From the NCBI GenBank assembly GCA_963724465.1, contig CAVRUT010000003.1, positions 308,505-372,504 of the forward strand: DNA of 64,000 nt, written 5' to 3'. Every line of letters starts with the position of its first letter. Positions within the stretch are counted from its first letter, which is position 1. Shown one piece after another: positions 5,310-42,248 of the stretch. The notes under the pieces are model-generated. The model saw nothing but the letters and a program-made list of their open reading frames with translations. It had not been told where the DNA came from and made no database searches. The DNA is from an uncultured Acidobacteriota bacterium. GTDB lineage: Bacteria; Acidobacteriota; Thermoanaerobaculia; UBA5066; Gp7-AA6. The position numbers were made by a program, and so were the translations under genes.

Positions 5310-6200
5310 ATGCCGCTCTCCCTAAACTGCATGCATCGGATCCTTGCCCTCGCCGCGATGGTGTTCCTCCTCCCGGCGTCACTCGCCCTGGCCGCCAAGA
5401 GCAAGGCCCCGAAACTGGACCTCAACACCGCCTCGCAGCAGGAGCTCGAGGCGCTGCCCGGCGTCGGCGAGGCGACCGCGAAAAAGATCATCGCCGGCCG
5501 CCCCTACTCCTCGGTCGCGGATCTCTCGAAAGCCGGAGTCCCGGCGGCCACGATCGACAAGATTTCGCCGCTCGTGACCGTCTCGAAGCCGAAGAAGGCC
5601 TCGAAGTCCGAGGAGAAGGCAGCCGCGCCCGAGAAGCCGGCGAAGGCCGCGAATGCCGCCGCTCCCGAAAAGCCCGCGGCGGCCGAAAAGTCCTCGAAGG
5701 CGGAAAAGCCCGCCACGGCAGCCGCCTCCGCCCCCGTTGACCTCAACACGGCCTCCGAGAAGGACCTCGAGGCGCTGCCCGGCGTCGGCCCGGCCACGGC
5801 GAAGAAGATCGTCGCGGGTCGCCCCTACGCGTCGGTCTCGGACCTCTCCAAGGCGGGTGTCTCCGCCAGCACGATCTCCAAGATCTCTCCGCTCGTCGTC
5901 GCCGGCGGGAAGACCGCCGCGAAGGCGGCACCGGCTTCCGCGCCCTCCGCCGCCGCGTCGGCACCGGCACCGGGCCCGGCCCAAAAGGTGCAGCCGAAGG
6001 CCCCGGAGGCCGCGACCGGAGCCTCTGCGGTCCGCAGCGCACCGGCCAGGGGGATGGTCTGGGTCAACACCGCGACCAAGGTCTATCACTTCGAGGGAGA
6101 CCAGTGGTACGGCAAGACCAAGGAAGGCAAGTACATGACCGAGCAGGACGCGATCAAGGCGGGCTATCGCGCCTCCAAGGAAGCCGCGCCGAAGCAGTAA
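5310..6200 (+). CDS. secreted ComEA-like protein with two helix-hairpin-helix DNA-binding modules
   Basis: Signal peptide [21 protein letters not shown]. Two copies of [42 protein letters not shown]. Ala/Pro/Lys linkers. C-terminal [33 protein letters not shown] module. Start could be 5253, 5310 or 5331. Confidence 0.8.
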
Positions 6201-11291: not shown

Positions 11292-11834
11292 TCAGTTCGT
11301 TCGAGCCAGATCGTGCCGGAGCCTCTGCTTGATCCGGCCCAACTTCGTGCCGACGTTCGATTCCGAGATGCCGAGCACCTCGGCGATCGTGTCGTAGCGG
11401 TTCCCGTCCAGGTAGAGAAGGACGAGCGCGCGCTCGAGCTCGTTCAGATCACCGATGAGCCGATGGAGCAATCGCAGTTCGTCCCTGGCGGGTCCGGCTT
11501 CGGGTGCGCCGGCGGCAACTTCAAGAAGGGCTTCTCCCGCCGGCACGGTGTGTCGCCTTCGCAGGGACTCCCGGCGGTAGAAGGAAATGGCGACGTTCAG
11601 GGCAATCCGGTACATCCAGGTCAAGAAGCGGTAGCGATCGTCGTACCGGTCGAAAGAGCGCCAGAGCTGGACCGCCATCTCCTGAACGAGGTCGCGCCTG
11701 TCCTCCGCGTTGCGGCAGTAGGCGCCGGCGACCTTGTGGAGGATCTTCCGGTGCTCCTCGAGCAGCCCGACGAACCGCTCCTCCCGCGCGGGTTGCGGCA
11801 TCGGCCCCCATCTTTTCACCACGGCGCTCGTCAT
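11292..11834 (-). CDS. ECF-type RNA polymerase sigma-70 family factor
   Basis: Region 2 (DLVQEMAVQLWRSFDRYDDRYRFLTWMYRIALNVAISFYRR) and region 4 HTH (YDTIAEVLGISESNVGTKLGRIKQRLR). Confidence 0.9.
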   Translation of the reverse strand: MTSAVVKRWGPMPQPAREERFVGLLEEHRKILHKVAGAYCRNAEDRRDLVQEMAVQLWRSFDRYDDRYRFLTWMYRIALNVAISFYRRESLRRRHTVPAGEALLEVAAGAPEAGPARDELRLLHRLIGDLNELERALVLLYLDGNRYDTIAEVLGISESNVGTKLGRIKQRLRHDLARTN

Positions 11835-27100: not shown

Positions 27101-29722
27101 CCCGCGAAGGAAGCTCCTCTTGGCGACCCGGCGCCGATTCGGCCGAAGGTTCGAGAAGAAGGAAAGAAACGAGGGCAGGGTGAGGACGCACAGAACGAAG
27201 GCCGTCCACAACCCGGCGCCGACGCCCGTCAGGCACCAGGCGGCAAGGAGCGTCGCGAAGGTCGCCGGCGCCGAGAGGCTGCGCCGGAGGTTGTCGATCA
27301 TCTTCCAGCGCCCGATCACCGGAATCGCGTCGGCCGCGCGGGCCTCCGGCGAAGCCCGGGCCGTTCCGAGGATCCAGGGCAGCAGCTGCCAGTCGCCGCG
27401 GACCCACCGATGCTGGCGCGATACCGCCACCTCGTAGTGGCCGGGGAAGCCCTCGAAGAGCTCGACGTCCGAAACGAACCCGGCCCGGGCGAAGAGCCCC
27501 TCGAAGAGATCGTGGGAGAGCTGCGTGTTCTCCGGCACCCGGTCGTCGAGCGCCCGCTCGAACGCGTCCACGTCGTAGATTCCCTTGCCCGTGTAGATCC
27601 CCTCGCCGAAGAGGTCCTGGTACACGTCGGACACCGCGAAGGCATAGAGGTCGATGCCGCGAGGGCCCGAGAAGACGAGCTGGAAGAGCGTGCCCCAGCC
27701 CGTCTCGGGCAACGTGGGTGTCACGCGAGGCTGAAGGATGGCGTGCCCTTCGACGACCTGCGCCCCGGCCGGATCGAAGCCGGGCAGGTTCAGCGGATGG
27801 GCGATCGTTCCGACCAGCCGGCGCGCCGCCTCCCGCGGCAGGCGGGAGTCGGCGTCGAGGGTGATCACGTAACGAATGCCCGAGGGCGCTTGCGGAGCAC
27901 CCGGGTCGGGAGGCAGAAAGGACGTGTCCGTCGCGCCGCGCAGGAGACGGTTCAACTCGCGCAGCTTGCCGCGCTTTCGCTCCCAGCCCATCCAGACCCC
28001 CTCGCGCTCGTTCCAGAGGCGGCGGCGGTGGAGGAGCCAGAAGCGGTCGCCGCCTCCGGCGGCGGGGCCGTGCCGTTCGTTGAGCTGCCGAATCGCGGCG
28101 CGCGCGAGCTCGACGAGCGCCCCGTCCTCGGGAAGGCTCTCGACGGGCGCGTCGGGCCAGGTCCGACAGAAGTGCAAACCGCAGCTCGGGATCGGCATTG
28201 GCCAGGTAGTGCACTTCCAGCCTCTGGACCACCTCGTCGATCTCCGACTCGTCGGTCAGAAGCATCGGAATGACGACCAGCGCGCGCAGCTCGGCCGGCA
28301 CGCCGCCCGCGAGCTCGAGCTTCGGGAGGCGCCGGGGGCCCATGAGCCGCGTGACGAAGCGATGGACGAGCGCGATCGCGAGGTCGGACGCGGGCGCAAG
28401 CGCCGAGGAGAGCGAGCAGAACGACCGACGACGCGGCGAACGCCGGCGAGCGCGGTCAGGGCCGTCGGGCACCGCGAGCATGGCCAGCGTCGAGAGCACG
28501 ATCGCGGCCAGATACAGCGGGGTCGCCGCCCGAACCCAGACGCGCCGCAGCCATTGCCGGACCGGAACCCGGAAGTCGAGCTCCCGCTCGAGTCCGGAGC
28601 GTCCCTTCGCGATGAGGTAGTAGCCGGGGTCCCGGACGCGGGGATCGGCAGCCGCGGCGGATGCGTCTCCTCGCGCCGCGGCGCCTCGCCGCCATGGCCA
28701 CCGCGCGCCGCGCCACCTCGAGCTCGTCGTGGCGGGCTTCCCCGTGAGAGCTCCTCGACGGCATGGCGATACCGGTCGCGCGTCGGAAAGTCCATTTCGG
28801 CCACGCGGGTGCCCTCGCACAGGGCCTCGTGAACCAGGCTCACGCTCTCGAAGAAGTCGGCCCAATCGGCCGACGACAGAAGGCGCATGCTCGTGATGAC
28901 GTTGCGCACCGTCGCGTGGTTGGCAATCTGCGCCTGGTGCTCGACGTGAACGATGTCCTCCGCCGTCGTTCCCTCGCGCGCGAGCCGTCGGTCGAGCCAC
29001 TCGAGCGCGGGCGTGACCGCGGGATCCTGCTCGCGCAGCCTCTGGACGAGCTGGACCGCGAAAGCCTGCGAAAACGGGGCCTGCTCCAGCATCTGAAGCA
29101 CCGCGGCCGGCTCGGGCTTGGGTGTGCCGCCCGTACCGAGCAGCGCGTCGGCGATCGCGTCCGCCTGATCGCGCGCGACGCTCCGCGCGGCGATGCGCTC
29201 GGCCAGGCGCCGGAGATTCTCGACGAGCACGACTCGCAGCGAGATCGCCAGCGCCCAGAGCTCGCCGATCGTCAGCGGCTGGACCCGCTGATAGGCGCGG
29301 ACGAAACGGCGCGAGCGTCTCGAGCTCGATCCGGCTGTCGGTGTGCGCGACGAACGACCAGGCCAGCCCGTAGACGCGCGGGATAGCCTTCGAGCGGCCC
29401 GGAGGCGAGCTTGGGCAGCTCCCGATAGAACCCCGGCGGGAGGTCCTCCTGGATCTCTCGAACCTGCTCCTCGACGATGTGGAAGTTGTTCAGCAGCCAC
29501 TCGGCCGCGGGAGAGACCGCGCGGGTCTGGCGGCTCGCCTCCGCGATCGCCCGGTGCGACTCGGACGAGGACCCGCGCGTTCTCGCGCAGCCGCGGGAGC
29601 AGCCGCCGCCCGCGCCTCTTCCGGGGATGGACGACCTGTTCGGCCGCGAGCGTCCCGGCGAACTGCTCCAGATGCTCCGCCGAGAAGAGCTCTGCCCGAA
29701 TCGGGCCGGCGGGTGTCCGCAT
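21191..29722 (-). CDS. ndvB: cyclic beta-1,2-glucan synthase (Cgs/NdvB/ChvB-like, about 2,840 codons); N-terminal 1.5 kb frameshifted
   Basis: An uninterrupted 2,335-aa ORF (21191-28198) has a GT84-type glycosyltransferase core (..[25 protein letters not shown]..) and a C-terminal GH94 glycan-phosphorylase-like region. The N-terminal ~500 residues ([23 protein letters not shown].., ..[25 protein letters not shown].., ..[28 protein letters not shown]..) are recoverable from three minus frames between 28198 and 29722. Confidence 0.9.
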
Positions 29723-29743
29723 CAGCTCTCTTCTTACCACGGA

Positions 29744-29776
29744 CAAAAAAAATGCCGAGCCGCATGCCGGCTCGGC
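29744..29776 (-). terminator. intrinsic terminator downstream of the BON gene
   Basis: The minus strand reads GCCGAGCCGGCATGCGGCTCGGC followed by ATTTTTTTT. Confidence 0.75.
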
Positions 29777-29799
29777 GGGTAAGAGAGAATACGGGGAAG

Positions 29800-30126
29800 T
29801 CAGGCCGTCGGGGGCGACTTGACCTGAAGATTGTTGATGACCTGGACGACGCCGGAGACCTTACGGGCCTCGCTCTGCGCGTCGGCCTTGACCTGGGCGT
29901 TCGGAACCTCACCCGCCAGGGTCACGACGCCGTTGGTGACATTGATGTCGATGTTCACGATGTTCGAGAAGCGGGCGGACGTGAGCTTCGCCGATGAGAC
30001 GGCGGCGTGAATGGTCGTGTCGTCAATCTGGCGGCCCGCGGTCTGGGTCGTCGAGCAACCCGCGACCAGGAAGGCCAGGGTCAGAGAGACGGCAAGAGTC
30101 AGGATTCCTCGAGTACGACGATTCAT
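29800..30126 (-). CDS. BON-domain lipoprotein (OsmY-like)
   Basis: MNRRTRGILTLAVSLTLAFLVAGC lipobox, then ..VNIDINVTNGVVTLAGEVPNAQVKADAQSEARKVSGVVQVINNLQV (BON domain). Confidence 0.85.
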   Translation of the reverse strand: MNRRTRGILTLAVSLTLAFLVAGCSTTQTAGRQIDDTTIHAAVSSAKLTSARFSNIVNIDINVTNGVVTLAGEVPNAQVKADAQSEARKVSGVVQVINNLQVKSPPTA

Positions 30127-30212
30127 GGGTTCCTCTGATCTTTCGGAGCGGTTCCTTCGACCCGGCAAATCCGGATCAATCGGAGCCGCCAGTGGGAAGC
30201 GATTGCGGCCGC

Positions 30213-30365
30213 TCACGCGGTGAGGCGGCCTCCTCTCACCAGGTGCAGCACGATGGCGATGATCGCCAGCACGATGAGAACGTGAATGAGACCTGTCGAG
30301 ACATGAAACGCAAAGAAACCCAGAGCCCAGAGAACCAGTAGAACGATGCCGATCGTCATCAACAT
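30213..30365 (-). CDS. lmo0937-family small membrane protein (50 aa; below ORF-track cutoff)
   Basis: GGAGG RBS, then MLMTIGIVLLVLWALGFFAFHVSTGLIHVLIVLAIIAIVLHLVRGGRLTA. Two TM helices. The RBS overlaps the stop of the DsbA-like gene. Confidence 0.75.
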   Translation of the reverse strand: MLMTIGIVLLVLWALGFFAFHVSTGLIHVLIVLAIIAIVLHLVRGGRLTA

Positions 30366-30374
30366 GGGAACCTC

Positions 30375-31011
30375 CTATGCGCCTTGGCGCTTTCTTCGTG
30401 ACTTGCGATTCGCAGGGACCTCGTCTTCAACCCGATTCGACTCATCACCCGAGGCGGCCTGGAGTGCCGCGAGCAGGGTCGCCAGGCCGAAGGAGCTCTC
30501 GTGCCGGATGGAGTTGATGAAGAAGGCCGGCGCCTCCGCGACTCCGCTGCGGACGCCTCCCTCCCGGATGCTCCGGACCTTCTCGGCGTGGAGGTGGGCG
30601 CGCATCTCGCGCCGGAACCGAAGGAGGTCCAGGCCGGCCTCCGCGGCGCGCCTGGACGAGCCGATGTCCGTCCGTCGCAGCCTGGCTTTCGAACAGGGAG
30701 TCGTGCATTTCCCAGAACTTGCCCTGCGAGGACGCGCACTCCGCGGCCTCGGCCGCCTCCTCGGAGTGCCGGAATTGCTCGGGCTGGGGGAAGCTGCGGT
30801 AGACGTAGCGCAGGCGCGTGCCCATCTCTTTCTGGATCTTCTTGACCGTGCGGTACGTCTGCACGCACGCCGGCGACGCGAAGTCGCCGTATGCCACCAG
30901 CGTGGTCTTCGCGAGCGGCGAGCCGCGGGCGTGGTCTCTCGCCGAGACTTTCCGCGCGAGTCGTCGGGTTTGTCGCTTGGTTTTCACCGTGTGACCATCC
31001 ATGCCCGGCAT
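30375..31011 (-). CDS. DsbA-family thiol:disulfide oxidoreductase-like protein (frame change near 30650)
   Basis: ..TTLVAYGDFASPACVQTYRTVKKIQKEMGTRLRYVYRSFP..EAAECASSQGKFWEMHDSLF.. then, in a second frame, ..MRAHLHAEKVRSIREGGVRSGVAEAPAFFINS.. (DSBA-like thioredoxin fold). Confidence 0.75.
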
Positions 31012-31070
31012 GCGAACGTTCGGCCTGCGTGTCCGACATTCGGAACGGCCGAGCGCGCATCGCCGGACCC

Positions 31071-31145
31071 TGATCATGTCGGTCGCGGCCGCGCCGGGTC
31101 CAATCGTTTGTTTCGCTCGAGTTGAGACCCGCGAGCGATGGAGTG
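31071..31145 (-). promoter_or_regulatory. conserved promoter-like module, copy 1 (points to DsbA-like/lmo0937/BON genes)
   Basis: The minus strand reads CTCAACTCGAGCGAAACAAACGATTGGAC-N19-CATGATCA. The DsbA-like start is about 60 nt downstream. Confidence 0.6.
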
Positions 31146-31156
31146 ACGGCCCTGCG

Positions 31157-31590
31157 TCAGTCAGTCGCGGCGACGGCCCAGCGCTCGCGGAAATGCCGAT
31201 AGGTCGCCGCCAGGATGGCGACGGCCGGGATCACGAGGAAGATTCCCGCGAGCCCTCCCAGCTCCGCGCCGCACAGGATGGCAAGGATGATGGCCAGGGG
31301 ATGCAGGTGAACGCCTCTGCCGACGATCTTCGGGTACACGACGTAGTCCTGCACGACCCTGAGCACGACGAGGAAAGTGAGGACGGCCAGCACCTGCCCG
31401 AGCGAGTGGAATGCGGCAAGGTCGTGGCCACGAGGCCGACCGTCAGCGGGCCGGCCAGGGGAACGAATTCGAGCAGACCGGCCACAATCCCGAGCACCAC
31501 CGCGTAGGGGATGCCGATCGCGAGGAACCCGATCGTGCAGACCACGCCGATGAGCAGACAGGCCGTACCTGGGTCACGTTCGTTCGCCTC
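31157..31590 (-). pseudogene. AI-2E (PerM) family transporter, C-terminal ~140 codons only, with a frame change
   Basis: ..FLAIGIPYAVVLGIVAGLLEFVPLAGPLTVGL.. and ..LAVLTFLVVLRVVQDYVVYPKIVGRGVHLHPLAIILAILCGAELGGLAGIFLVIPAVAILAATY.. The N-terminal ~200 residues of the family are absent. Confidence 0.7.
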
Positions 31591-31635
31591 TGAGACTACA
31601 ATTTGGCATGTAAACATCCAGAGCCAACCCGATCC

Positions 31636-31692
31636 GATCATGTGGCCCCGGCTCTGTTTCGTTCGTGTCGAGACCTCGGAGCGATTGAAAGG
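31636..31692 (-). promoter_or_regulatory. partial/degenerate copy of the conserved module (copy 2)
   Basis: The minus strand reads CTCGACACGAACGAAACAGAGCCGGGGCCACATGATCGG. It keeps the CGAAAC and ACATGATC parts but lacks AACGATTGGA. It sits just upstream of the truncated AI-2E fragment. Confidence 0.4.
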
Positions 31693-31701
31693 GGAGGCTC
31701 C

Positions 31702-32678
31702 ATGGAGCTGCGGCACCTTCGCTACTTCGTCGCGGTCGCGGAAGATCTCCATTTCGGCCGCGCCGCGAACCGCCTGCACACCTCTCAGTCGTCCCTGAGC
31801 CAGCAGGTTCGGAATCTCGAAACCGAGCTCAAGGTCGACCTGCTGCGCCGCGTCAAGCGGCACGTCGAGCTCACACCGGCGGGAAGTCGGTTCCTTCAGG
31901 AGGCGCGCGGGATTCTGGCCGCGGCCGAGCGCGCGGCCGGGCTGGCGAGGGAGACGGCGCGAGAAGAGTCCCAGAAAATCGTCATCGGCATTTCGCCGGA
32001 GACGGACTGGGCGTTCCTGGGCAGGGCGCTCCGGCTCTTTCGCGGAGCACGCCCCGTCGGTCGAAGTCCTCTTTCAGAACCTCACGCCGGAGGCCCAGAT
32101 CGAGGCCCTCCACGGGGGCCGGATCGACATCGGCTTCGTGGGTCTTCCGATCGAGGCGGAGGGCATCGTCAGCGAAGTCACCGGACGCGAGCGACTCGTG
32201 GCCGCGATCCCCGAACAGCATCCGATGGCTCGCAACGAGACGCATCCGGCTGCGGGACTTGTCCGGAGAAGCCTACACGCTCTGGCCCCGGCACCTGTCG
32301 CCGGGCCGCTACGATCAGTTGCTGTCGATCTTTCGGCGGGCCGGATTCGGGCCGCCGATCGCGATGGAAGGGGGGCTTCCCTCGACCCAGACCGTCCTGG
32401 GAATGGTCGCCGCGGGTTTGACCGTTGCGCTCGTCGATCCTGCGATCGAGCAGAGGGCGATGCCGGGAGTCGTCTTCCGTCCGATCGAGGACCGCGGAGT
32501 GTTCACCGAATCCGGGGTGATCTACCGGCGGGAGGACCTCTCGCCGCTGCTGGCTTCTTTTCTCCACGAGGTCCGACTCACTCCTCGCCGGCGGGTGGAG
32601 TCCAAGGCCAGCGACGAGAAAGGGAAGGCGGCCTCGAAGCCTCGTCGTATCCCCGTCAGGGCTCGAAGCGTTCGATGA
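31702..32678 (+). CDS. LysR-family transcriptional regulator (two frame changes)
   Basis: GGGGAGG RBS, then MELRHLRYFVAVAEDLHFGRAANRLHTSQSSLSQQVRNLETELKVDLLRR (LysR HTH). The substrate-binding domain pieces lie in two further frames. Confidence 0.85.
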
Positions 32679-32715
32679 CCGCTCCCTGAGACCAAGCCCG
32701 GCAGAGGCCCCGCCA

Positions 32716-32747
32716 AGAAAAAAGCGCCGGGAGCTATCTCCCGGCGC
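32716..32747 (-). terminator. intrinsic terminator downstream of the secreted repeat-protein gene
   Basis: The minus strand reads GCGCCGGGAGATAGCTCCCGGCGC followed by TTTTTTCTT. Confidence 0.7.
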
Positions 32748-32773
32748 GTGCGAAACTGAGTGAAGAAGGCTGT

Positions 32774-33422
32774 TTAGGCCTTGTTCGGGTACGGAACGAT
32801 CGTCGTGACCTTGTCGCCACTGTCCGACTTCGTGAACGTGACCTTGACGCGCTCGCCGACGGTCACGGCATTCTTCAAGGCGGCCATGCCGGTCAGATCG
32901 AAGCTGTAGTCCTTGTCTTTGGGCCCTGTCACCTTGATCGACTTACCCACCTCGTACTCCTTGACGGTTCCGACGACGGTTTCCGTCTTCGTGCTTCGTG
33001 GTCGCTCCGGGCCGCTGTTCTTCGTGGTCGACTCCGAATGCATCTTCGGAGCGTCGGCCGCCGTCACCGCGTTGGCCGTGGCTTCCGAGACGACCGAGAC
33101 GCTTTCCTTGCCGTCGACGTCCCCTTGGTGTACTGGACCGTGGCCATCTGGCCGACGACGATCGTTCCCTCGACCCTGGCATTCTCGCCGAGGTCGAACG
33201 CAGTACGATTTGTCGCCGGGGCCGGAGAGCTTGATCTTCTTGCCGACCTCGTACTCCTTGACCGTTCCGGTCACGGATTGCGTCTCGGTCTTCAGGGTCG
33301 CTCCCGGGCCGGTCTGCTTGGTCGTCGTCGTCTCGACGGCCTTCTTCTCCGGCGTCTGAGCGATTGCCTGTGATGCCGGCCAGCAGGCAAAGACCGACGG
33401 CCGTTCCAATGATTCTCTTCAT
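32774..33422 (-). CDS. secreted protein with an internal duplicated ~70-aa module (frameshifted)
   Basis: MKRIIGTAVGLCLLAGITG signal sequence. Two copies of TxxVxGTVKEYEVGKxIKxxGPxDKxYxFDL...V.VG..V.V. The pieces lie in three minus frames. Confidence 0.65.
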
Positions 33423-33511
33423 GATTCTCAACCTTTCAAAGAGCGGACCGAAATTGGCCCGCGTACCGTGTCGCCGTCGGGACTCCGACAGGCTGAAGTG
33501 GTCGACGGAAG

Positions 33512-33585
33512 AGGCATGATCCTGCCTTGCCTGCCGTCGGGTCCAATCGTTTGTTTCGTCGAGACCGAGCGTTGAAACGGCCAAG
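33512..33585 (-). promoter_or_regulatory. conserved promoter-like module, copy 3 (points to secreted repeat-protein gene)
   Basis: The minus strand reads GTCTCGACGAAACAAACGATTGGAC-N19-GATCATGCC. The gene start at 33422 is about 90 nt downstream. Confidence 0.55.
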
Positions 33586-33600
33586 GAGCCGGCCCGGGGT

Positions 33601-34151
33601 CTAAGGCCTGAGGCTCGGGCCTCTCCACGCCCTGGCTTGCGCCAGGACCGGTCGCCAGTGAACGCGGCCGGACTCCCGGCTGCTGGAGGACAGGAGTCTC
33701 GCGGCATAGCGAAACAGCCTGGGTCCCCATGGTTGAAGCGGCTGAACCCTGGCCACGTCGGCGCAGTAATCGCACTGCGCGGTCCCATTGAGCGTCACGG
33801 CCGTCTTGTTGGATCGGCCGCAGTTCGGGCAGTTCCAGCCCCTGAGAGCGGTCTTCACAGAGCACCGACTGCACCGACGAGAGACTTCAATCTCGACGCG
33901 ATCAGGTTGCGGCTCCGGGCATCGGCCAATCCCCAGTCGGCCATTTCGGATCGAGTCGCTGTCGTCTTCCCCTTGAAGGCCAGAACGTTCGTCGTCCAGT
34001 GGCGAAGAATCGTTCCGGCGCGCGGCCGAACGGAGGGAACGCTGGCCAGGGCCGCGCAACTCACGCACGCCGTGACTCCATCCGGACGGGCGTCCGCATC
34101 CATCGGGCGTTTGCAGCTTGCGCACTTCGACTGTCGAGATTCGGTAGCCAT
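33601..34151 (-). CDS. zinc-ribbon protein, paralog A (one frame change near 33880)
   Basis: [43 protein letters not shown].. then, in a second frame, ..[49 protein letters not shown]. It resembles the protein at 36808-37140. Confidence 0.5.
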
Positions 34152-34399
34152 AGTCCATACCCCACTTTCTTCGCCGAGACCGGCGGCGGGCACTCGATTG
34201 TCTTGTGGAGTCGGTCCGTCGGAAGGAATCGGAAACCAAACACTATCACAGATGCCGACCACGACTCCGGGTCCTCGTCGAGGACGAATGCGGCAATCCT
34301 GTCGAAACGCGGACGGCGCCGCGTCAGGGCTGGCACGCCCCCGGCGGCCCGAGTGTCGGGCCAGTGGATCCCCCGCTTCGGTCGGGATGACACGCCCGG

Positions 34400-35953
34400 C
34401 CTCCCTTCGGTCGTCCCGTGCCGCATGCGGGCCGTCGCTCCGGGCGTCCCGCTGCTCCTCGTACCACTTCTTCGCGCCGAGGAGTCGGAGCTTCGTGGCG
34501 TCGGGCTGCAGCTCGATTCCGACGCTCAAGGCGCCCGACTCGATCAGGAAGGCGCCGTCCCGGGTCGCCTTGTCGCGGAGGTAGCGCCCCTGGATGTGAT
34601 AGCTGCCGCCCCTGGCGTCGAGGCGCTCGACGCGGGTGAGCGAGGGGCCGAGGGAGACGGTGCCGGTCGCGGAAAAGTCGTCGAGGTTCACGAGGCCCCG
34701 AGTCCAGGCCGGGAGGTCGGCCGCCAGCAGCGCGAGCAGCGGCCGCGCATCCCGGGTCTCGGCGTCGATGCGCGCGGTCGTGGTCGAGTCGATCTTCCCC
34801 GAGGGGATGTCGAAGCGGCCCCACCAGCGCCGCGAATCGTCCGAGCCGGAGGCGCGGACGTCCGAGAGAGCGACCCGGCTGCCCGAGATCTCGAGTGGGC
34901 CGGTCATGAGATTCCACGCGGGGATGAGCAGGCGCACGTCGGCGTCGCCCCGGAGCGCGAGCTTCTCCAGGCGCACCGACCCGTCGTGAACCGCGAGCCG
35001 GACCTCGCCCTTCGCAATTCCCCGCTCGATGGCGGCCCGGATCGTTGCCTTGCCCGCTCCCTCTTCGAGGCGCGTGCCGGCGGAGGAGAAGAGGTGCTCG
35101 AGCGACTCGAGCCGGTCGAAGCGAGCGTCGAGCTTCACTGCTCCCGAGACCTTCTGCCAGACCTCGCTGCCGTGCACCTTCGGCGGCTCGAACGGCTCGA
35201 AGGTGCCGTCGATGGCTCCCGGATACGGAGACGCCGACAGGCGCCCGGCCGATGCGCACTTCGCCGCTCTCGAAGGAAACTCGCGCAGGGCCGATCCACA
35301 CCAGGAGGCCCGGCCGCAGGAAGAATGCCCCGTCGAGGCGCGCAGCCCCCCGGTAGTGGTAGGCGTCGAACCATATTTCGTCGAAGTGCTCGATGCGAAT
35401 TCTCCGGACCTCGATGCGCCAGGGATTGCCGCTCGGCTTCCGCCCGTTGCTCCTCCGGCGAGCGCAGCGGCGGGTCGGCGAAGCCCGGAATCGGCGGGAG
35501 CACGGACAGGTCCGCGCTCTTCGCCTCCCCGGGCTCGAGCTTGCTGCGGAGGAAGAAGGACAGACCGGTTCCGCGGAGGCGCTCTGCCCGAAATGTTCTC
35601 TTCACGAGCGCGAAGACCGAGTAGTCGACGCGCGCATCGGCCAACCGGATGATCCACTGGACGTTGTGGTCGCTGCCTCGGATCCGGAGATTCCTGATCG
35701 TGACTCGGCCGGGCCAGACAGATGTCGCCTCGTCGTAGTCGAGAGTCAGCGACTCGGGGTCCGCATTGATCAGCGCGCGCAGCCTCGGGCCCGAGAGAAG
35801 CCAGCGGGCCGCCGCCGCGTAGACGACCAGGGACAGGAGCGGGGCGAGGACCAGCAACAGGAGCAGTCGCCACGGGTGTCGAGCCCGCTGCGAGAGCTTC
35901 TTCTTGAGGCTGCCTTCCAGGCGCGTCAGTGCGGACAGAAGATCGAAGGGCAT
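34400..35953 (-). CDS. large N-terminally membrane-anchored protein of unknown function (frameshifted; 3' end uncertain)
   Basis: [53 protein letters not shown] (TM anchor), then ..[38 protein letters not shown].. and a long beta-rich region ..[37 protein letters not shown].. in other frames. It lies 27 nt downstream of the SOD stop. Confidence 0.55.
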
Positions 35954-35980
35954 CGGTCGACGACGGGCGGGTGCCCCGCG

Positions 35981-36620
35981 CTAGTCGACCCTGGTCCCCG
36001 CGCCGGCGAGCTCCACGTTGACCGCGGCACGCCGCCTCGAAACGCTCGGCCACGTCCGCCCAGTTCCAGACGTTCCACACCGCGTCGAAGAACTCGGTCT
36101 TGCGGTTCTGATACTGCAGGTAGAACGCGTGCTCCCAGGCGTCGAGCACGAGAAGCGGAGTGCCGGCCTGCGCCAGGTTCGACTGGTGGTCGTAGATCTG
36201 CGTGACGAGCAGCTTCTTGCCGAGAGGCTCCCAGACGAGCGCTGCCCAACCCGAGCCCATGATGCTCGCCGCGACGGCGTTGATCTGCTTCTGGAGCTTC
36301 TCGAAGCTCCCGAATTCCTGTTTGATCGCGGCGGCCAGCTCGCCCTGCGGCCGTCCGCCCGCCTTCGGCGCCATGTTCTTCCAGAACAGAGAGTGGAGCA
36401 CGTGGCCCGACAGGTTGAACGCGAGGGCCTTCTCGAGCGCGCCGATGTCGTCGAACTGGTCCTTGTCGCGCGCCTCGGCGAGGCGCTCGAGCGCGGCGTT
36501 TGCCCCCTTCACGTAGCCGGCGTGGTGCTTGTCGTGGTGGAGCTCCATGATCTTGCCCGAGATGTGGGGCTCGAGGGCGCTGTAGTCGTAGCGAAGCTCG
36601 GGAAGCGTGTAGGTAGCCAT
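35981..36620 (-). CDS. sodA: Fe/Mn-family superoxide dismutase (probable 1-nt change just before the stop)
   Basis: [37 protein letters not shown]...[31 protein letters not shown]. The natural stop (TAG at 35981) is reached only after a shift near 36030; otherwise the frame runs on to 33855. Confidence 0.9.
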
Positions 36621-36702
36621 TCGGAAATCTCCCATGGTTGCGGCGGGTCTCTAATCGGCACCGTGCGCCGCCACGATGCCGCCTCGCAAGGCCTCTCCTG
36701 CC

Positions 36703-36790
36703 TCACGATCATACCCAGCATGTCCGACCGACAGGGGCGCCGTCCAATCGTTGATTGCGCTCAATTCCGGACGTGGCATCGATCAACTCG
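36703..36790 (-). promoter_or_regulatory. conserved promoter-like module, copy 4 (points to SOD gene)
   Basis: The minus strand reads GAATTGAGCGCAATCAACGATTGGAC-N19-CATGCTGGGTATGATCG. The sodA ATG is about 85 nt downstream. Confidence 0.6.
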
Positions 36791-36807
36791 GTGCCGGCAG
36801 CTCCTCG

Positions 36808-37140
36808 TCAAAGCCACACGACGCCGACGGTCATGCGCGCTGCTCCGGGCCGCCTGAGCGGGAAAAACACGGAGGCCTCGTGTTGTGTCCCGCAGGCCTT
36901 GCAGTTCACGTCGACGATCTTCCCGGCCTCGGAATCGGGATCGATGATCGTCTCGTGCCGAACCCGGCAGTCGGGACAGGTCCAATTCATGTCCTGTCTC
37001 CGGTGCACTTCGACCCTCCGCTTCGGACGAGACCAGCCGGCGATCAGCTCACTGCGAAGCATCCGTAGACTGCGCGTCAATTTCACTCCATCCCCCGTTT
37101 CCACGGAGCCGGAGAGAGCAGGCTGCCGTGTCTCTGCCAT
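36808..37140 (-). CDS. zinc-ribbon protein, paralog B
   Basis: MAETRQPALSG..LRSELIAGWSRPKRRVEVHRRQDMNWTCPDCRVRHETIIDPDSEAGKIVDVNCKACGTQHEASVFF. The start is uncertain: an RBS-preceded ATG at 37201 lies in another frame, and an internal ATG at 36990 would give a 60-aa zinc ribbon. Confidence 0.55.
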   Translation of the reverse strand: MAETRQPALSGSVETGDGVKLTRSLRMLRSELIAGWSRPKRRVEVHRRQDMNWTCPDCRVRHETIIDPDSEAGKIVDVNCKACGTQHEASVFFPLRRPGAARMTVGVVWL

Positions 37141-37267
37141 TCTCGTGAGGCTCGAGGCTACGTTCGTCTTCTCGACGTTTGGGATCTGTGTTGGCAGGCA
37201 TTCGCGATACTCCTTCGGGTTCGGCGAGTCACAGTGACATCGTCGGAAAGAAGGCCGAGCGCCGGCC

Positions 37268-37320
37268 AGCATGTCCGACCGACGGCGGCGGCGTCCAATC
37301 GTTGTTTGCGCTCAGATTCA
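37268..37320 (-). promoter_or_regulatory. conserved promoter-like module, copy 5 (points to zinc-ribbon paralog B)
   Basis: The minus strand reads GAATCTGAGCGCAAACAACGATTGGAC-N19-CATGCTGG, almost identical to copy 4 in the -10-like part (GTCGGTCGGACATGCTGG). Confidence 0.6.
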
Positions 37321-37324
37321 GACG

Positions 37325-37366
37325 CCGAAACGATCGACCCGGATCGCCCGCCGCCGGCAATAAGCA
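37325..37366 (+). promoter_or_regulatory. variant module back-to-back with copy 5 (points to the plus-strand micro-ORFs)
   Basis: The plus strand reads CCGAAACGATCGAC-N19-CAATAAG. It has the same spacing as the other copies but AACGATCGAC instead of AACGATTGGAC. Confidence 0.4.
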
Positions 37367-37386
37367 AAGGAATCAAGGAGGCTATC

Positions 37387-37452
37387 ATGCTTTTCGAAGG
37401 CAACGTCACGTCGCTCACTAAGGCCTGCGGAAAGGCAAGTCGCGTAGGTTAG
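37387..37452 (+). CDS. possible 21-aa micro-ORF
   Basis: AAGGAGG RBS 6 nt upstream of ATG, giving MLFEGNVTSLTKACGKASRVG. There is no homology argument; only the RBS and position upstream of the lmo0937-family gene support it. Confidence 0.3.
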   Translation: MLFEGNVTSLTKACGKASRVG

Positions 37453-37472
37453 GCTGATCTCAAGGAGGCGCT

Positions 37473-37622
37473 ATGTTGTGGACGATCTTCGTGATTCTCC
37501 TGGTGCTCTGGCTGCTGGGCCTGGTGACGAGCTACACGATGGGGGGTTTTGTCCACGTCCTTCTCGTCATCGCCGTCATCGTCCTCGTGATCCAGCTCGT
37601 TCAGGGACGGCGCGTCGGCTGA
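37473..37622 (+). CDS. lmo0937-family small membrane protein (49 aa; below ORF-track cutoff)
   Basis: AAGGAGG RBS, then MLWTIFVILLVLWLLGLVTSYTMGGFVHVLLVIAVIVLVIQLVQGRRVG. Same architecture as the ORF at 30213-30365. Confidence 0.75.
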   Translation: MLWTIFVILLVLWLLGLVTSYTMGGFVHVLLVIAVIVLVIQLVQGRRVG

Positions 37623-37644
37623 GTCTTTGACCTGTCCGCATCCC

Positions 37645-37674
37645 GCTGGCGCGGTGGTCCCCCACCGCGCCAGC
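37645..37674. terminator. 13-bp perfect GC-rich hairpin between convergent genes
   Basis: GCTGGCGCGGTGG-tccc-CCACCGCGCCAGC between the lmo0937-family stop (37622) and the VIT1 stop (37684). There is no U-tract on either side. Confidence 0.5.
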
Positions 37675-37683
37675 CTCCGTGGC

Positions 37684-38413
37684 TCAGGCCACCGTTCCGA
37701 ACAGCGACCCGACGCCCGCCGTCAGCGCCATGGCGAGCGCTCCCCAGAACGTGACGCGGAGGGCGCCTTTCAACACGCCGGCGCCGCCCACGCGCGCCGC
37801 CAGGCCGCCGAGAAGCGCGAGGAACAGCAGGGACGTCCCCGAGACGAGCGGAATCAAGCCGCGCCACCGGGGCCACGACGGTGACCAGCAAAGGCATGGC
37901 TGCTCCCACCGCAAAGCTGGCGGCCGACGCCAGCGCCGCCTGAATCGGGCGCGCGCGGAACGTGTCGGAGATGCCGAGCTCGTCGCGGGCATGCGCGCCG
38001 ATCGCGTCGCGGGCCATCAGCTGATCGGCAACCTGCTTCGCGAGCGACGGATCGAGCCCGCGGGCAACGTAGATCGCGGCCAATTCCTTGTGCTCGCCCT
38101 TGTCGTCCGCCTTGAGCTCCGCCCGCTCGAGCTCGAGCGCTGCCTGCTCGCTGTCTGCCTGCGAGTGGACCGACACGTACTCGCCGGCAGCCATCGACAT
38201 CGCCCCGGCTACGAGGCCGGCGACTCCGGCGACCAGCACGTTGCTGTGGCTCGCATGCGCGGCGGCGACACCGAGCACGAGACTGGCCGTGGAGACGATG
38301 CCGTCGTTTGCGCCCAGCACCGCTGCGCGCAGCCAGCCGATGCGTCCGGTCCGGTGTCGCTCCGGGTGGCCCGCGGGGACCTTTGATGCCCGACCGAACG
38401 AGCCCGTCCTCAC
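37684..38413 (-). CDS. VIT1/CCC1-family iron/manganese transporter (frame change near 37870)
   Basis: ..IGWLRAAVLGANDGIVSTASLVLGVAAA..AGAMSMAAGEYVSVHSQADSE.. and, in a second frame, ..LIPLVSGTSLLFLALLGGLAARVGGAGVLKGALRVTFWGALAMALTAGVGSLFG. Confidence 0.85.
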
Positions 38414-38429
38414 AAGCGGCGCGCTCCGT

Positions 38430-38819
38430 CTATGCCAGGAATCGCCGCCGGGCGACCGCCGCGATCTGGGGGTCGGTCATCTTGTCGGCCGTTTCGAGGC
38501 CGACGATGGCCTTGCCGAGTCCCGCATCACGGAGGCGCTTTTCCACCTCGTGCTTGGCCTCGCCGGGACCGAGAATCAGAATGGACCTGGCATCCCGCAG
38601 GGACGCGATGACCTTGTCGTAGTACTGGTTGAGATGCCCCTCAAAGCGCTTGTCCCGGGCATCTTCCGCGGCACCTTCGCGCCCAGAAAAAAGGACGTCC
38701 TTCTCGAGACCCGACACAATGCGTTTCAGGTCTTCCGTACCACCGGCGACGGCCGCAATCACGGCTTGCCGGTGATCGATCCACAAGGCAACGTCTCGCT
38801 GCATCGGTGTGTTCCGCAA
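38430..38819 (-). CDS. hypothetical protein
   Basis: Intact 129-aa ORF (alternative start MQRD at 38804) with protein-like composition, between the 26-aa peptide gene and the VIT1 gene on the same strand. Family not recognised. Confidence 0.6.
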   Translation of the reverse strand: MRNTPMQRDVALWIDHRQAVIAAVAGGTEDLKRIVSGLEKDVLFSGREGAAEDARDKRFEGHLNQYYDKVIASLRDARSILILGPGEAKHEVEKRLRDAGLGKAIVGLETADKMTDPQIAAVARRRFLA

Positions 38820-38914
38820 CCCGGCCCCGCTCGGCCTGCGACGGAGATCATATCTGCGCGGTGCCTACCTCTTGATCTTTCGACCGAGGGCCAGCCCGTT
38901 CGCCTGTTGCCAGT

Positions 38915-38995
38915 TCAGGCCCGTCTGCCGCGGTACCAGTATCCGCCGCCACCGAGAAGAAAGAGTACGAGCAATACGATCACGATGGTTTCCAT
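38915..38995 (-). CDS. 26-aa single-TM peptide (below ORF-track cutoff)
   Basis: METIVIVLLVLFLLGGGGYWYRGRRA, about 45 nt downstream of the -10-like box of module copy 6, preceded by AAGGGA. Confidence 0.5.
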   Translation of the reverse strand: METIVIVLLVLFLLGGGGYWYRGRRA

Positions 38996-39035
38996 GTTTT
39001 GGTCCCTTCTCATTGGAACGTCTTGATCCACGGTG

Positions 39036-39100
39036 TGATCATGTGCCCTTCGACAGGTCCACTTCCAATCGTTTGTTCCGCTCGAGTTGAGACGTGAAAC
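39036..39100 (-). promoter_or_regulatory. conserved promoter-like module, copy 6 (points to 26-aa peptide/hypothetical/VIT1 genes)
   Basis: The minus strand reads CTCAACTCGAGCGGAACAAACGATTGGAA-N19-CATGATCA. Confidence 0.6.
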
Positions 39101-39165
39101 GGCACCGAGGCAAGCTGTTCCCGCCATGCGGGAGAAGCGACGGTTGATCGTCGCCTCGCCTGAAG

Positions 39166-39215
39166 ACGATCGGAACAAACGATTGGACGGCATGCGCCTC
39201 GAGGGGCGACGATGG
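39166..39215 (+). promoter_or_regulatory. conserved module, copy 7 (orphan; no recognisable gene downstream)
   Basis: The plus strand reads GATCGGAACAAACGATTGGAC, but the -10-like part (GCGACGATGG) is less conserved. It is divergent from copy 6, about 100 bp away. Confidence 0.45.
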
Positions 39216-39319
39216 CTTCACCACCTGGCGCTCTTGCGCCGGGAACTCATCAAAAAGCCGCGAGTCCCGCACTGGGGGCGTTAGCGGCCCTTCCTTGCCT
39301 TGGCGGGACCAGCGCATTC

Positions 39320-39392
39320 ATCGCTCGCTCGACTCAAGTCAAGCGAAACGAACGATTGGACCCGGCCCGTCGTGAGCGACATGATCATCGTC
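39320..39392 (+). promoter_or_regulatory. conserved promoter-like module, copy 8 (points to glycine-zipper protein gene)
   Basis: The plus strand reads CTCAAGTCAAGCGAAACGAACGATTGGAC-N18-CATGATCA. The GGGGAGG RBS and the ATG at 39426 follow within 40 nt. Confidence 0.65.
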
Positions 39393-39425
39393 GGTAATCT
39401 CGACTCATTACCAGGGGAGGCCAGC

Positions 39426-39917
39426 ATGCAAGCCAGGAACGACGGTGTGGTGGACTCGAGTTCTGCGAATCGCGACCCGTTGACGAACGGGCCGGGTTCT
39501 CATCCGGTCGGCACGGGCGTTGGATCCGCCGGAGGAGCCGTCGCCGGCGTCGTCGTCGGAGCGACCGTGGGTGGGCCCATCGGGGCCGTCGTGGGAGGAG
39601 CCGTCGGCGCCGTCGTGGGCGCGACGGCGGGTCACACTGTTGCCGAGGCGGTCAATCCGACGGTCGAACGAGAATACTGGAAGAGGACTTTCCAGGATCG
39701 GCCCTACTACAGGCCGGGCAAGCAGTACTCGGATTACGAGCCCGCCTATCGCTTCGGATGGGAGTCGGCGCTGCGCAAAGAGTACGGAGGCAGAGAGTTC
39801 GACGCGGTCGAGCCCGAGCTTCAGCACAACTGGACGAGCGACCGGGGCGCCGCGGATCCGTGGACCGACGCGCGAGATGCAACACGAGACGCGTGGCTGA
39901 GGGTCCGCTCGAGCTGA
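39426..39917 (+). CDS. glycine-zipper stress-type protein
   Basis: [12 protein letters not shown]...[41 protein letters not shown] (glycine zipper), then [34 protein letters not shown]. The ORF-track start (39300) is upstream of the RBS and unlikely. Confidence 0.7.
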
Positions 39918-39989
39918 GCGAGGAGGGTCGGTCGCCGCGAAACCCACGCCGATCTCCCGCCCGGCCAACCGGGCGGCCGCGAAGGTCCG

Positions 39990-42248
39990 CTAGCCCTCCT
40001 TGCGAATCAGCTTCCACAGCGCGACCCGGTCCGGCGCCAGCAGCTCCTCGATGCGGGAGTGGTTGACGTCGGCCACGATGATCTGGCCGACCTCGGTCTG
40101 CACATCGGAGAAGAGGCCGTGCGATTTCATCTTCATGGTCTGATACTTGTTGTCCTCGCTGGGACTGACGTAGTGCACCGAGTCGCTCTTGTAGCGGTGT
40201 ACCAGCCAGAGATGGACGAGCGTCATCAGCCGCTTCTTGCGCAGAGACTCCTCGAAGGTGTTCTGGTCGCGCACCGAAAGAATGCTGCGGCCGCGGCGAT
40301 CCTGGATGGGAGCAAAAACGACGTTGGCGAAGCGGTCGTTGCCGCCGCCCCCGATCGTCAGCTCGAGCAGCTCCGAGCCGGCGCGCTGGGGCAGCAGCTT
40401 CACGCCGAGCTTGTAGGGAAGCTGGTAGTGCTCGCCCCACATCGCCAGCCATTCCTCGAGCAGCTTCTTGGGCACTTCCGTCTGGACCAAGTGCTGGTGC
40501 TGGGTCGAGCCCTTGCCCATCGCCATGGTGGTGGCCGTGCGCCCCGAGGACGCCAGCAAGGCGGCGTCGACGCGCGGCCCGCCGACGAGCGTCTGAGGCG
40601 TCTTGTAGGGGGACTCGACGAGGCGAATCTTGCGCTGCAGGCGGGCGAGCGCCAGCATTCCCTCCTGCCTGAGGGCGGTGCCGAATTCCTCGGCGGCGAC
40701 GCCGTCGATCTGGTGGCCGCCGTAGGTTATGAAGTTGAAGACGAAGCCCATCTTGCCGAGCTCCTCGGGAAAGCGCTCCATCTCCTCGTCCCTCATGCCG
40801 GTCGAGTCCCAGTTGAAGGACGGCGACAGGTTGTAGGCCAGCATCTTCTCCGGGAATTCGGCGTGGATCGCTTCGGCGAACTCGCGGGCGTCGTCGAGGT
40901 TCGCCGTCTTGGTCTCCATCCACAGGACATCGGCGAAGGGTGCGGCGGCGAGCGACTTGGCGATGGCATAGGGAATGCCGCCGCGGATCTGGTAGTAGCC
41001 CTCGGGGGTCTTCGCGTGTTCGCAGTCCCAGATGATCTGGACGCCGAGCGACCTGGCCTTCTCCTTGGCCGCCCACAGCGAGGCGCGCTCGGCAAAGCGG
41101 CGCCACTGCGCGGCGCTCATCTCGAACGGCTCGCCCTCGCTGGCCCGGAACTCCAGCACCTCGGCCACCGCCTCGCCGTACGTCTCGAGGCCGCTCTCCT
41201 CCACCCAGGCTTCGAGGAAGCGCGAGGCCACTGCGTCCAAGGCGGCGTCGACCGTGAGGTGTTTGCCCTGCCGATAGGCCGCGGCGCCTTCGGCGGCGAG
41301 GGCCGTCAGCCCCTTGCGCTCGAGCCAGACGTCTGCGGCGCGGTACTCCTCGTCGCACAGCGCGTAGAGGAGGTGGCCATTGAGCTCGCGGATCCCGAGA
41401 TCGTAGAAACGCTTCAGCAGTGCCAAGTAGCCGGCTTTGTAGGAGGGCAGGTTGACGTTGGTGGCGCCCAGGATGAACGGCTGGTCGCGCTCGTCGGCGC
41501 GGCCGTCGAGCAGCGTCGCCGCCTCGGCGTCGGTCCGGGCGACGATGATGCCGGGGACCTTCATGACGTCGAGCTGGAAGCGCGCCGCGTTCAAGCGCTT
41601 GATCTGCTCGTCCTGCGGCACCAGAACCTTGCCGCCCTGGTGGCCGCACTTCTTGGTGCCCGGGCGCTGGTCCTCGATGTGGTAGCCGGGCACGCCGGCC
41701 TCGACGAAGCGCCGGATGAGGTTGCGCACGTGCGGGTCGCCGCCGTGGCCGGTATCGGCGTCCGCGATGATGAACGGGCGATAGTCATGGGCCGGCGTCG
41801 CCTCGCGCTGCTTCTCGGACATGCGCGAGCGCAGATACTGCTGGTTGCGGTCGGCGGTGAGCAGAGCGCGCACCAACACCGCGGCCTCGTCGGGCACCTG
41901 GCTCAAGGGGTAGCTCGCCAGATCGGGCCCGGGATCCTCGCTCGTCGAGCCCCTGGCCGAGGTCGCCCAGCCGCCGAGGTAGATGCCCTCGATGCCCAGG
42001 CGCTTGATCACCACCGCCTGGCCCGGCGAGTACGGGCCGAACGTCGTGATGCTCTTTCTCACGGCGAACAACTGGCGCAGGCGGTCGTAGAACGCCGCCG
42101 CCGCCTCGCGCGCCACGGTGTAATCGCGGGCGATGGTGCCTCGCTGCTCGACGACCTGGCGCGCCGTGTACAGACGCGCCGTACCCGCGAACCGCGGGCT
42201 TTCGAACCACTTCTGGGTCTCTGCGACTTCCTGCTCGAACGAAGTCAT
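39990..42248 (-). CDS. aceA: isocitrate lyase, long (ICL2-like, about 750 aa) form; alternative in-frame start at 42308
   Basis: Intact ORF with ..[13 protein letters not shown].., ..[24 protein letters not shown].. (KKCGH active site), an inserted domain and a C-terminal extension as in long mycobacterial-type ICLs. Confidence 0.9.

Follow-up and report, generated by a model that had tools for sequence, protein, structure and literature searches.

Why should one ten-nucleotide sequence recur unchanged, always facing a gene or a transcribed-looking block, within a small part of an uncultured bacterium's genome? The question is raised by a stretch of 64,000 nt (~68% G+C; hereafter the window, numbered from its first letter) of contig CAVRUT010000003.1 from an uncultured Acidobacteriota bacterium, in which the 10-mer AACGATTGGA occurs exactly seven times, every copy lying within 31.1-39.4 kb as the core of a module of ~70 bp. 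Comparison of sequences across many genomes supports the reading of this module as a conserved promoter joined to an activator site, placed before stress-protection genes in one group of soil Acidobacteriota. That the modules form a family of LysR-dependent composite promoters resembling the nod box of rhizobia, read by the LysR-type transcriptional regulator (LTTR) encoded in the same gene island, we hold to have a probability of about 0.5. Chance would provide 0.05 copies of the 10-mer, and seven were reached in none of 100 dinucleotide-preserving shuffles, which bears out the original prediction, made from the sequence of the window, that seven exact copies are improbable by chance. Tolerating one mismatch yielded zero extra copies in the window, and a position weight matrix (PWM) of 36 nt built from the seven copies found no further sites anywhere in it, in agreement with the earlier remark that no copy lies outside 31-39.4 kb; that region does hold, besides the seven, a decayed eighth copy. 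All seven copies face the adjoining gene or block, three of them lying between co-directional genes. One of the cores had been placed at 39177-39186, which is off by one base, the correct position being 39178-39187.

The module extends well beyond this genome. Scanning of a collection of species-representative genomes with the pattern AGCGNAANNAACGATTGGAC returned 90 stretches, of which more than 50 come from at least 32 metagenome-assembled genomes (MAGs) labelled Acidobacteriota, three of them Thermoanaerobaculia, often with two to three matches per 8 kb; the other stretches, each with a single match, come from unrelated genomes of low G+C content and appear to be chance matches. Reading of the genome loci gave 121 distinct copies, and a looser pattern applied to metagenome contigs added ~55 more, mostly from soil, the final set comprising 168 distinct copies from genome and metagenome loci together. 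The few 8-kb pieces read hold at least 6-9 copies per genome, so that the regulon probably amounts to a few tens of promoters. Searches of the literature by sequence returned primers only, and those by topic returned no description of such a motif in Acidobacteria.

Across these copies the module has a defined anatomy. With the first A of the core (its first base) numbered +1, Box A (TCcATCGyT) occupies -34..-26, Box B (GTCTCAAyTCgAGCGAAAcA) -20..-1 and the core, AACGATTGGAC, +1..+11, followed by 17-18 unconserved G+C-rich bases and a -10-like hexamer nAnnnT that begins at +30/+31 in 156 of the 168 copies (93%). The hexamer reads CATGAT in 31 and CATGCT in 23 copies of the 121-copy set, where GATGAT, CATCAT and GATCAT are also found; the corresponding boxes of the seven window copies are ACATGATCA (three times), ACATGCTGG (twice), GGATCATGC and GACGATGG (once each), matching, as does the longer conserved block, the earlier description, which had named ACATGATCA, ACATGCTGG and GATCATGC. 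Information content in the position matrix is ~0 outside -34..+36, and the 168 copies show no other positional signal out to +125 downstream. When the upstream part alone was used as the query, the core was exact in 113 of 137 matches. Four conserved blocks follow one another ~11 bp apart (ATCG at -31, GTCT at -20, A(G/T)CG at -9 and CGAT at +3), the last two forming an A(T/G)CG-N7-CGAT dyad that adjoins the -35-like TGGAC. This dyad is a perfect ATCG-N7-CGAT, which contains T-N11-A, at -9..+6 in 20 copies, window copy 6 among them, and most other copies have AGCG-N7-CGAT (position -8 is G in 69, A in 21 and T in 8 of 99). The core itself consists of two separable halves, for nnCTATTGGAC variants keep TGGAC and another family keeps ATCG-N7-CGAT without TGGAC, carrying TAGCCT or TACGAT in the same +30 register.

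To these variants belongs the box ATCG-N7-CTCT-N7-ATCG-N7-CGAT-CAATCA, without TGGAC and with TAGCCT/TACGAT at +30, which precedes a small cytoplasmic histidine kinase recurring in the islands (loci L003:1597, L065:1317, L076:560, L084 on the minus strand, L150 on the minus strand and L156:7573). Fully palindromic relatives (GATCGTTTGATnnTCTCAGnCTGAGAnnATCAAACGATC), also without TGGAC, occur in L074 (~6077-6140), L079 (~950-1020) and L085 (several), one in L074 standing directly after the LysR stop codon. The decayed eighth copy of the window, aligned to L027, L033, L073, L075 and L084, retains Box A, Box B and CATGAT and has lost 17 nt including the core (AACGATTGGATCTGTCT in relatives); without the core its PWM score is 41.

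What the modules precede is equally recurrent. By our tally about five sixths of the copies have an identifiable co-directional gene or small-RNA-like block within ~420 nt. Downstream assignments were based on homology-supported families and not on a gene caller, since the one available, based on G+C content at third codon positions, which found a co-directional start for 70 of 111 copies, is crude and over-extends or misses many open reading frames. The most frequent family is that of DsbA-like Thioredoxin_4 proteins, with 19 copies in genome loci (orthologues of window copy 1 precede them in all 19) and 14 in metagenome contigs, followed by the secreted repeat protein (13), glycine-zipper proteins (10), DUF6600 (9), superoxide dismutase (9), Zn-dependent alcohol dehydrogenase (6), DUF5670 of the lmo0937 type (4), zinc-ribbon (4) and BON (3) proteins, and fatty-acid desaturase, VIT1 and CsbD (2 each); single cases include GroES, a cupin, a PstS-like protein, PAS sensors and a response regulator, and a PAS-LuxR gene follows one copy, in L034 only. 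The recurrence of superoxide dismutase, BON, CsbD, glycine-zipper, VIT1 and DsbA-like proteins across loci upholds the stress-type gene set that had been perceived in the window, and the genes under control would serve envelope protection and the handling of redox and metal stress.

A small RNA would join them. Copy 6 of the window had been set aside as an orphan without a gene, which it is not: it is followed by a block of ~85 nt that is conserved in nine loci (the window, L007, L010, L015, L051, L058, L062, L075 and L087) whatever comes after it, and that from its sequence looks like a box-driven small RNA. The predicted structure comprises the hairpins CCGG/CCGG and GCCGC..GUCCC/GGGGC..GCGGC and then a C/U-rich tail, CCUUCCUUG; the block has no Rfam match and is too conserved to show covariation.

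Several subtypes have particularities of their own. The DsbA-type leader (window 30990-31072, minus strand; 17 orthologues) has a conserved GGTCCGGCGAT just past the hexamer and a CUCCGA-AUG-UCGGAG hairpin, and in L025, L049 and L059 the DsbA-type promoter drives the DUF5670 gene directly. A second DUF5670 gene of the window (37473-37622) is without a box of its own, unlike its counterparts in L012 and L039. In the repeat-protein subtype (window 33516-33551; L027, L045 and L159) the -10-like GATCAT sits in the loop of a hairpin whose stems differ among relatives (GAGGAGGCA/TGCCTCCTC versus GAGGAGC/GCTTCCTC), and which may be a second, subtype-specific control element.

A block of this kind might be conserved as DNA or as RNA. 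Transcription of the whole block into a leader, be it a riboregulator or a protein-binding 5' untranslated region, would make sense of the partial complementarity of Box A to the core (Box A is a partial inverted repeat of it, with CTC/GAG as an inner dyad) and of the hairpins that surround the hexamer in some subtypes, with one or two compensatory changes. However, Rfam 15, acidobacterial motifs included, gave no match at gathering score in the 64 kb and nothing relevant in 30000-40500 even at E<=10, which speaks against the known RNA (e.g. an acidobacterial motif) that had been considered from the outset. Single-sequence folds of the seven copies are no better than those of shuffles (z -1.5 to +0.9) and their structures disagree, and the dyad columns do not covary: positions -16/-10 are C-C in 39, C-G in 37 and G-G in 26 copies, in 41% of copies a G at position -32 faces an invariant G, and mutual information over all pairs of columns has as its sole signal a 1-nt register slip of the hexamer. 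In divergent back-to-back pairs (L016, L081, L012, L034 and window copies 5 and 6) the cores lie 83-111 nt apart with 14-36 nt between the Box A elements, too short a stretch to hold separate promoters further upstream. Moreover, the same block precedes mRNAs with leaders from ~0 to >300 nt as well as a putative small RNA. We consider a transcribed leader most improbable, and on the strength of the missing covariation, the lack of a stable fold and the tight divergent pairs we read the conservation as protein-DNA recognition.

Dispersal of a mobile repeat without a regulatory role, such as a miniature inverted-repeat transposable element (MITE) or a sequence like the repetitive extragenic palindromes, would also leave several near-identical copies within 9 kb and could bring along partial dyad symmetry. 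In at least 32 species-level genomes, however, the copies occupy orthologous positions before the same genes, they face the adjoining gene, and their flanks are subtype-specific while the core is invariant. The terminal repeats and target-site duplications by which a MITE was to be recognised are absent, conservation ending at -34 and +36, and this explanation has hardly any probability left.

The arrangement of the conserved parts resembles that of a promoter. TGGACn followed after 17 or 18 bp by nAnnnT has the spacing of a sigma-70-type -35/-10 pair; TGGACn and CATGAT each match the Escherichia coli sigma-70 consensus at four of six positions and a strict consensus scan calls neither, which fits the need for an activator. 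Start codons follow the core at anything from ~40 to >350 nt, while the spacing of core and hexamer is fixed in the 156 copies mentioned, and this is the behaviour expected under the earlier proposal of a -35 (TTGGAC)/-10 (CATGAT) promoter with an upstream extension or activator site. In L034 the hexamer TGTAAT is followed 7 nt later by a GTG/ATG start, an arrangement that fits a leaderless mRNA; conservation of the candidate small RNA starts just past the hexamer; and the leader of ~85 nt behind the DsbA-type copies does not code for protein, its indels not being multiples of three. The ATG inside CATGAT was considered as the start of a leader peptide or of the DsbA-like reading frame and was ruled out, as the frames differ among copies and the indels are non-triplet. 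From these comparisons we infer, with good support, that the modules are promoters and that the genes behind them form a regulon. Counting from the hexamer at +31..+36 as a -10 element, the two sites formed by the four upstream blocks would be centred near -66 and -44 of the deduced transcription start, the symmetric site being the proximal one.

Other described elements were compared with the position matrix. An extracytoplasmic function (ECF) or EcfG-type promoter does not fit: nothing is conserved 16-17 bp past GAAAC, and AAC at -15..-13 stands 14 bp from CGAT, with a conserved spacer. A sigma-54 promoter (TGGCAC-N5-TTGC) finds no TTGC signal at +17..+20. None of the consensuses GGAAC-N16-17-CGTT, AAC-N16-17-CGT, GTTT-N12-15-GGGTAT and TGGCAC-N5-TTGC fits the matrix, nor do sigma-28, sigma-32, MerR-spacer, CRP/FNR or CsrA/Y-box readings. 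The opinion that the consensus is not a described sigma motif can be maintained as far as the ECF, sigma-54 and EcfG consensuses are concerned.

These comparisons bear on the alternative that a dedicated sigma factor governs a general-stress regulon like that of SigB or EcfG, TTGGAC and CATGAT being its -35 and -10 elements and the upstream blocks a promoter extension or a co-activator site. The gene content is like that of general-stress regulons (CsbD, BON, glycine-zipper, superoxide dismutase, GroES), TGGAC is nearly invariant, and in the hexamer C/G consistently takes the place of the T that sigma-70 promoters carry at -12. Nonetheless, the known patterns do not fit, and the thirty further conserved bases 5' of the -35 element would need another reader. 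Alternative sigma factors usually drive their own gene, and a sigma gene was found downstream of none of the ~170 copies by tblastn with RpoE, SigB and RpoH queries, which counts against this alternative; the same kind of search of the motif-bearing Acidobacteriota loci found none apart from one ECF gene 9 kb off in L121. In the window the nearest sigma gene is 20 kb away from the boxes. We regard a dedicated sigma factor as unlikely, though the most plausible of the competing explanations. The window gene in question, at 11292-11834 on the minus strand, is the only sigma-like one there; it belongs to the ECF type, matches E. coli RpoE in tblastn with E 5e-9, and there is no box in its vicinity.

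Which protein, then, would read the upstream blocks? The local LysR had been suggested as a candidate, and both synteny and site geometry speak in its favour. Its gene, interrupted in the window, is intact in relatives, where it encodes 325-336 aa, and it represents the most widespread protein cluster of the islands, present in 18 of 49 motif-bearing loci; its N-terminal part, with the DNA-binding domain, has 90-93% identity in 12 of the 18, above the values of neighbouring genes, and many orthologues with >74% identity occur in soil data. In ~15 loci a divergent copy adjoins the LysR gene, with 45-49 nt between its core and the LysR ATG, which falls 11 nt past Box A. These adjoining copies are of a GGAT subtype that the locus-fetching pattern does not match, and the association with LysR is therefore not an ascertainment effect. 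Among proteins of solved structure the regulator is nearest to BenM, CatM and CbnR (E 1e-34 to 1e-39). A review of the family describes a T-N11-A dyad, a regulatory site at -80..-50 and activation sites over the -35 element, divergent regulator genes that repress themselves, and LTTRs with global regulons (PMC11495319). A divergent regulator gene with a site overlapping its own promoter is what we find here, in one syntenic lineage.

The following model would unite these features. Each copy would be a weak sigma-70-type core promoter (-35-like TGGACn, 17-18 bp, -10-like (C/G)AT(G/C)(A/C)T) fused to an upstream region of ~45 bp that recruits an activator, with four blocks one helical turn apart, the last two being the dyad that abuts the -35 element. 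The activator would be the island LTTR, which as a tetramer could occupy the two sites centred near -66 and -44 and aid RNA polymerase at ~10 to several tens of promoters per genome, while at its own divergent promoter, which one copy overlaps, it would act as its own repressor.

A number of observations weigh against this model. The adjacency of LysR and box is one inherited syntenic arrangement, perhaps two if the L074 group is counted, and not 15 independent events, and in L074, L077, L079 and L085 a Crp-like gene stands between the box and LysR. The better dyad is promoter-proximal and the distal ATCG-N7-GTCT is barely symmetric, whereas the textbook LTTR layout has these roles the other way round. 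Sites of LTTRs are usually degenerate whereas the 10-mer is near-invariant here, the nod box being the main precedent for such conservation. The T at -12 is almost never present, which could mean a different sigma specificity. The LysR gene of the window has two frameshifts and the seven boxes are intact, a situation awkward for a sole regulator if the frameshifts are real. Lastly, other regulatory genes recur in some islands, namely the histidine kinase (seven loci) and a Crp-like regulator (four loci).

The last point leads to the possibility that the activator is another DNA-binding protein, either a response regulator partnering the small histidine kinase or the Crp-like protein, with LysR a mere neighbour or target. 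The kinase has its variant box, and PAS-LuxR, PAS-sensor and response-regulator genes lie downstream of some copies. On the other hand, the kinase and Crp-like genes are far less widespread than LysR, no response-regulator gene is conserved in the islands, and a site of 45 bp with four blocks spaced by ~11 bp and an NNNN-N7-NNNN dyad is more easily reconciled with an LTTR tetramer than with a Crp dimer. We judge another activator to be improbable, somewhat more so than a dedicated sigma factor, and retain the island LTTR as the preferred reader of the box.

Comparison with known systems places the module more precisely. The nod box of rhizobia is a highly conserved sequence of ~47 bp, present in several copies per genome and read by the LysR-type NodD. 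Our module resembles it as a long conserved, oriented box just 5' of the -35/-10 elements of different operons with dyads of the T-N11-A type; it differs from it in sequence, host phylum and LTTR subfamily, and in being linked to stress protection instead of nodulation. With the BenM, CatM and CbnR systems it shares 4-nt half-sites separated by N7 (ATAC-N7-GTAT there, A(T/G)CG-N7-CGAT here), two sites ~22 bp apart, and a divergent regulator gene whose promoter the site overlaps, but here the symmetric site is proximal, not distal, and the targets are many and unlinked instead of one or two catabolic operons. The recognition helix of the island LTTR reads SQSSLSQQ, against AQPPLSRQ in BenM.

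OxyR, an LTTR with a global role, makes contact with about four major grooves in a row 5' of the -35 element, and its targets include the OxyS small RNA. The likeness lies in the targets, thiol-disulfide, iron-handling and oxidative-stress genes plus a small RNA, whereas the site is unrelated to ATAG-N7-CTAT. The island LTTR falls below every NCBIfam equivalog cut-off, scoring 92 bits with the OxyR model against a cut-off of 329, and its intact relative P0001 contains no cysteine; its identification as OxyR is thereby ruled out. The general stress regulons of SigB in Firmicutes and of PhyR-NepR-EcfG in Alphaproteobacteria are defined by sigma factors, with the promoters GTTT-N12-15-GGGTAT and GGAAC-N16-17-CGTT, respectively. 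Their targets overlap with those found here (CsbD, BON, glycine-zipper and small membrane proteins, superoxide dismutase), but neither promoter pattern nor a linked sigma gene was found. Sequence and candidate regulator alike set the module outside the nod-box, OxyR and EcfG systems; the kind of gene switch is familiar, but this example of it is undescribed.

Table. Positions in the 64-kb window of the module copies, the candidate regulator and the features that accompany them.
Feature	Position	Strand	Remarks
Module copy 1	31073..31142 (core 31099-31108)	-	5' of DsbA-like / DUF5670 / BON genes
Module copy 2	33516..33585 (core 33542-33551)	-	5' of secreted repeat protein, 32774-33424(-); 13 orthologous copies
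Module copy 3	36717..36786 (core 36743-36752)	-	5' of superoxide dismutase gene, 36030-36620(-)
Module copy 4	37268..37337 (core 37294-37303)	-	5' of zinc-ribbon protein, ~36808-37201(-)
Module copy 5	39038..39107 (core 39064-39073)	-	GGAA variant; targets 26-aa peptide (38915-38995), 129-aa protein (38430-38819) and VIT1 (37687-38413)
Module copy 6	39144..39213 (core 39178-39187)	+	back to back with copy 5; perfect ATCG-N7-CGAT dyad
Module copy 7	39317..39386 (core 39351-39360)	+	5' of glycine-zipper protein, 39423-39917(+)
Decayed eighth copy	~31637-31690	-	divergent from LysR start codon, 11 nt away
LysR-type regulator	31702..32681	+	candidate activator; two frameshifts here
Operon downstream of copy 1	29800..30987	-	DsbA-like thioredoxin, DUF5670, BON lipoprotein
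DsbA-like thioredoxin	30390-30987	-	one frameshift
DUF5670/lmo0937-type membrane peptide	30213-30365	-	
BON-domain lipoprotein	29800-30126	-	
Candidate small RNA	39225..39305	+	predicted to be driven by copy 6; predicted ends

The region around the boxes shows signs of local disruption. At least 12 frameshifts relative to intact orthologues are confined to 28161-38413 (28.1-38.5 kb), the flanking genes being intact. They affect LysR (two, at ~32040 and ~32240), the DsbA-like gene (~30657), VIT1 (~37858), the repeat protein (~33375), perM, a 515-aa membrane protein (two, at ~35300-35432) and the N-terminal part of a giant protein (about five, 28161-29746), and the superoxide dismutase reading frame runs on for 926 codons; the cluster reflects either a localised assembly error or real decay. 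At 31567-31690 the window lacks ~2 kb that L027 and L073 possess, comprising DUF6600 and the 5' portion of a permease of the perM type, and a truncated permease is left at 31166-31587 on the minus strand. A 21-codon remnant at 37386-37451 on the plus strand (MLFEGNVTSLTKACGKASRVG, ending in a stop), with a good Shine-Dalgarno sequence, matches the N-terminus of a cupin that is found at full length 3' of a box in L051; the second DUF5670 gene comes next after the remnant. Just after the repeat-protein gene, a strong terminator-like hairpin (32724-32747, minus strand; 10 pairs followed by TTTTTTCTTG) demonstrates that this high-G+C genome makes use of U-tailed terminators.

Acidobacteriota are among the most abundant soil bacteria, are mostly uncultured, and their gene regulation is almost uncharted. 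For one group of them we can now point to a cis-element with sharp limits, to a candidate regulator by name, to targets that cohere in envelope, redox and metal protection, and to a candidate small RNA. The element allows the regulon to be predicted directly in MAGs, its activity can be read in soil metatranscriptomes, e.g. under drought or oxidative stress, and the regulator can be tested with synthetic DNA, without cultivation of the organism. The mechanism is probably that of an ordinary activator-dependent promoter, and the value of the finding lies in a new regulon and an unusual degree of conservation; it brings no new principle. It is tempting to speculate, and we do so only tentatively, that the box marks a master switch for general stress responses throughout the lineage, in which a single cysteine-free LysR, or else a sigma or other factor, would command tens of promoters, that of a new small RNA included, through a nearly invariant element of nod-box type. 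If this were true, these bacteria would possess a general-stress system organised unlike the sigma-factor-based systems of other phyla.

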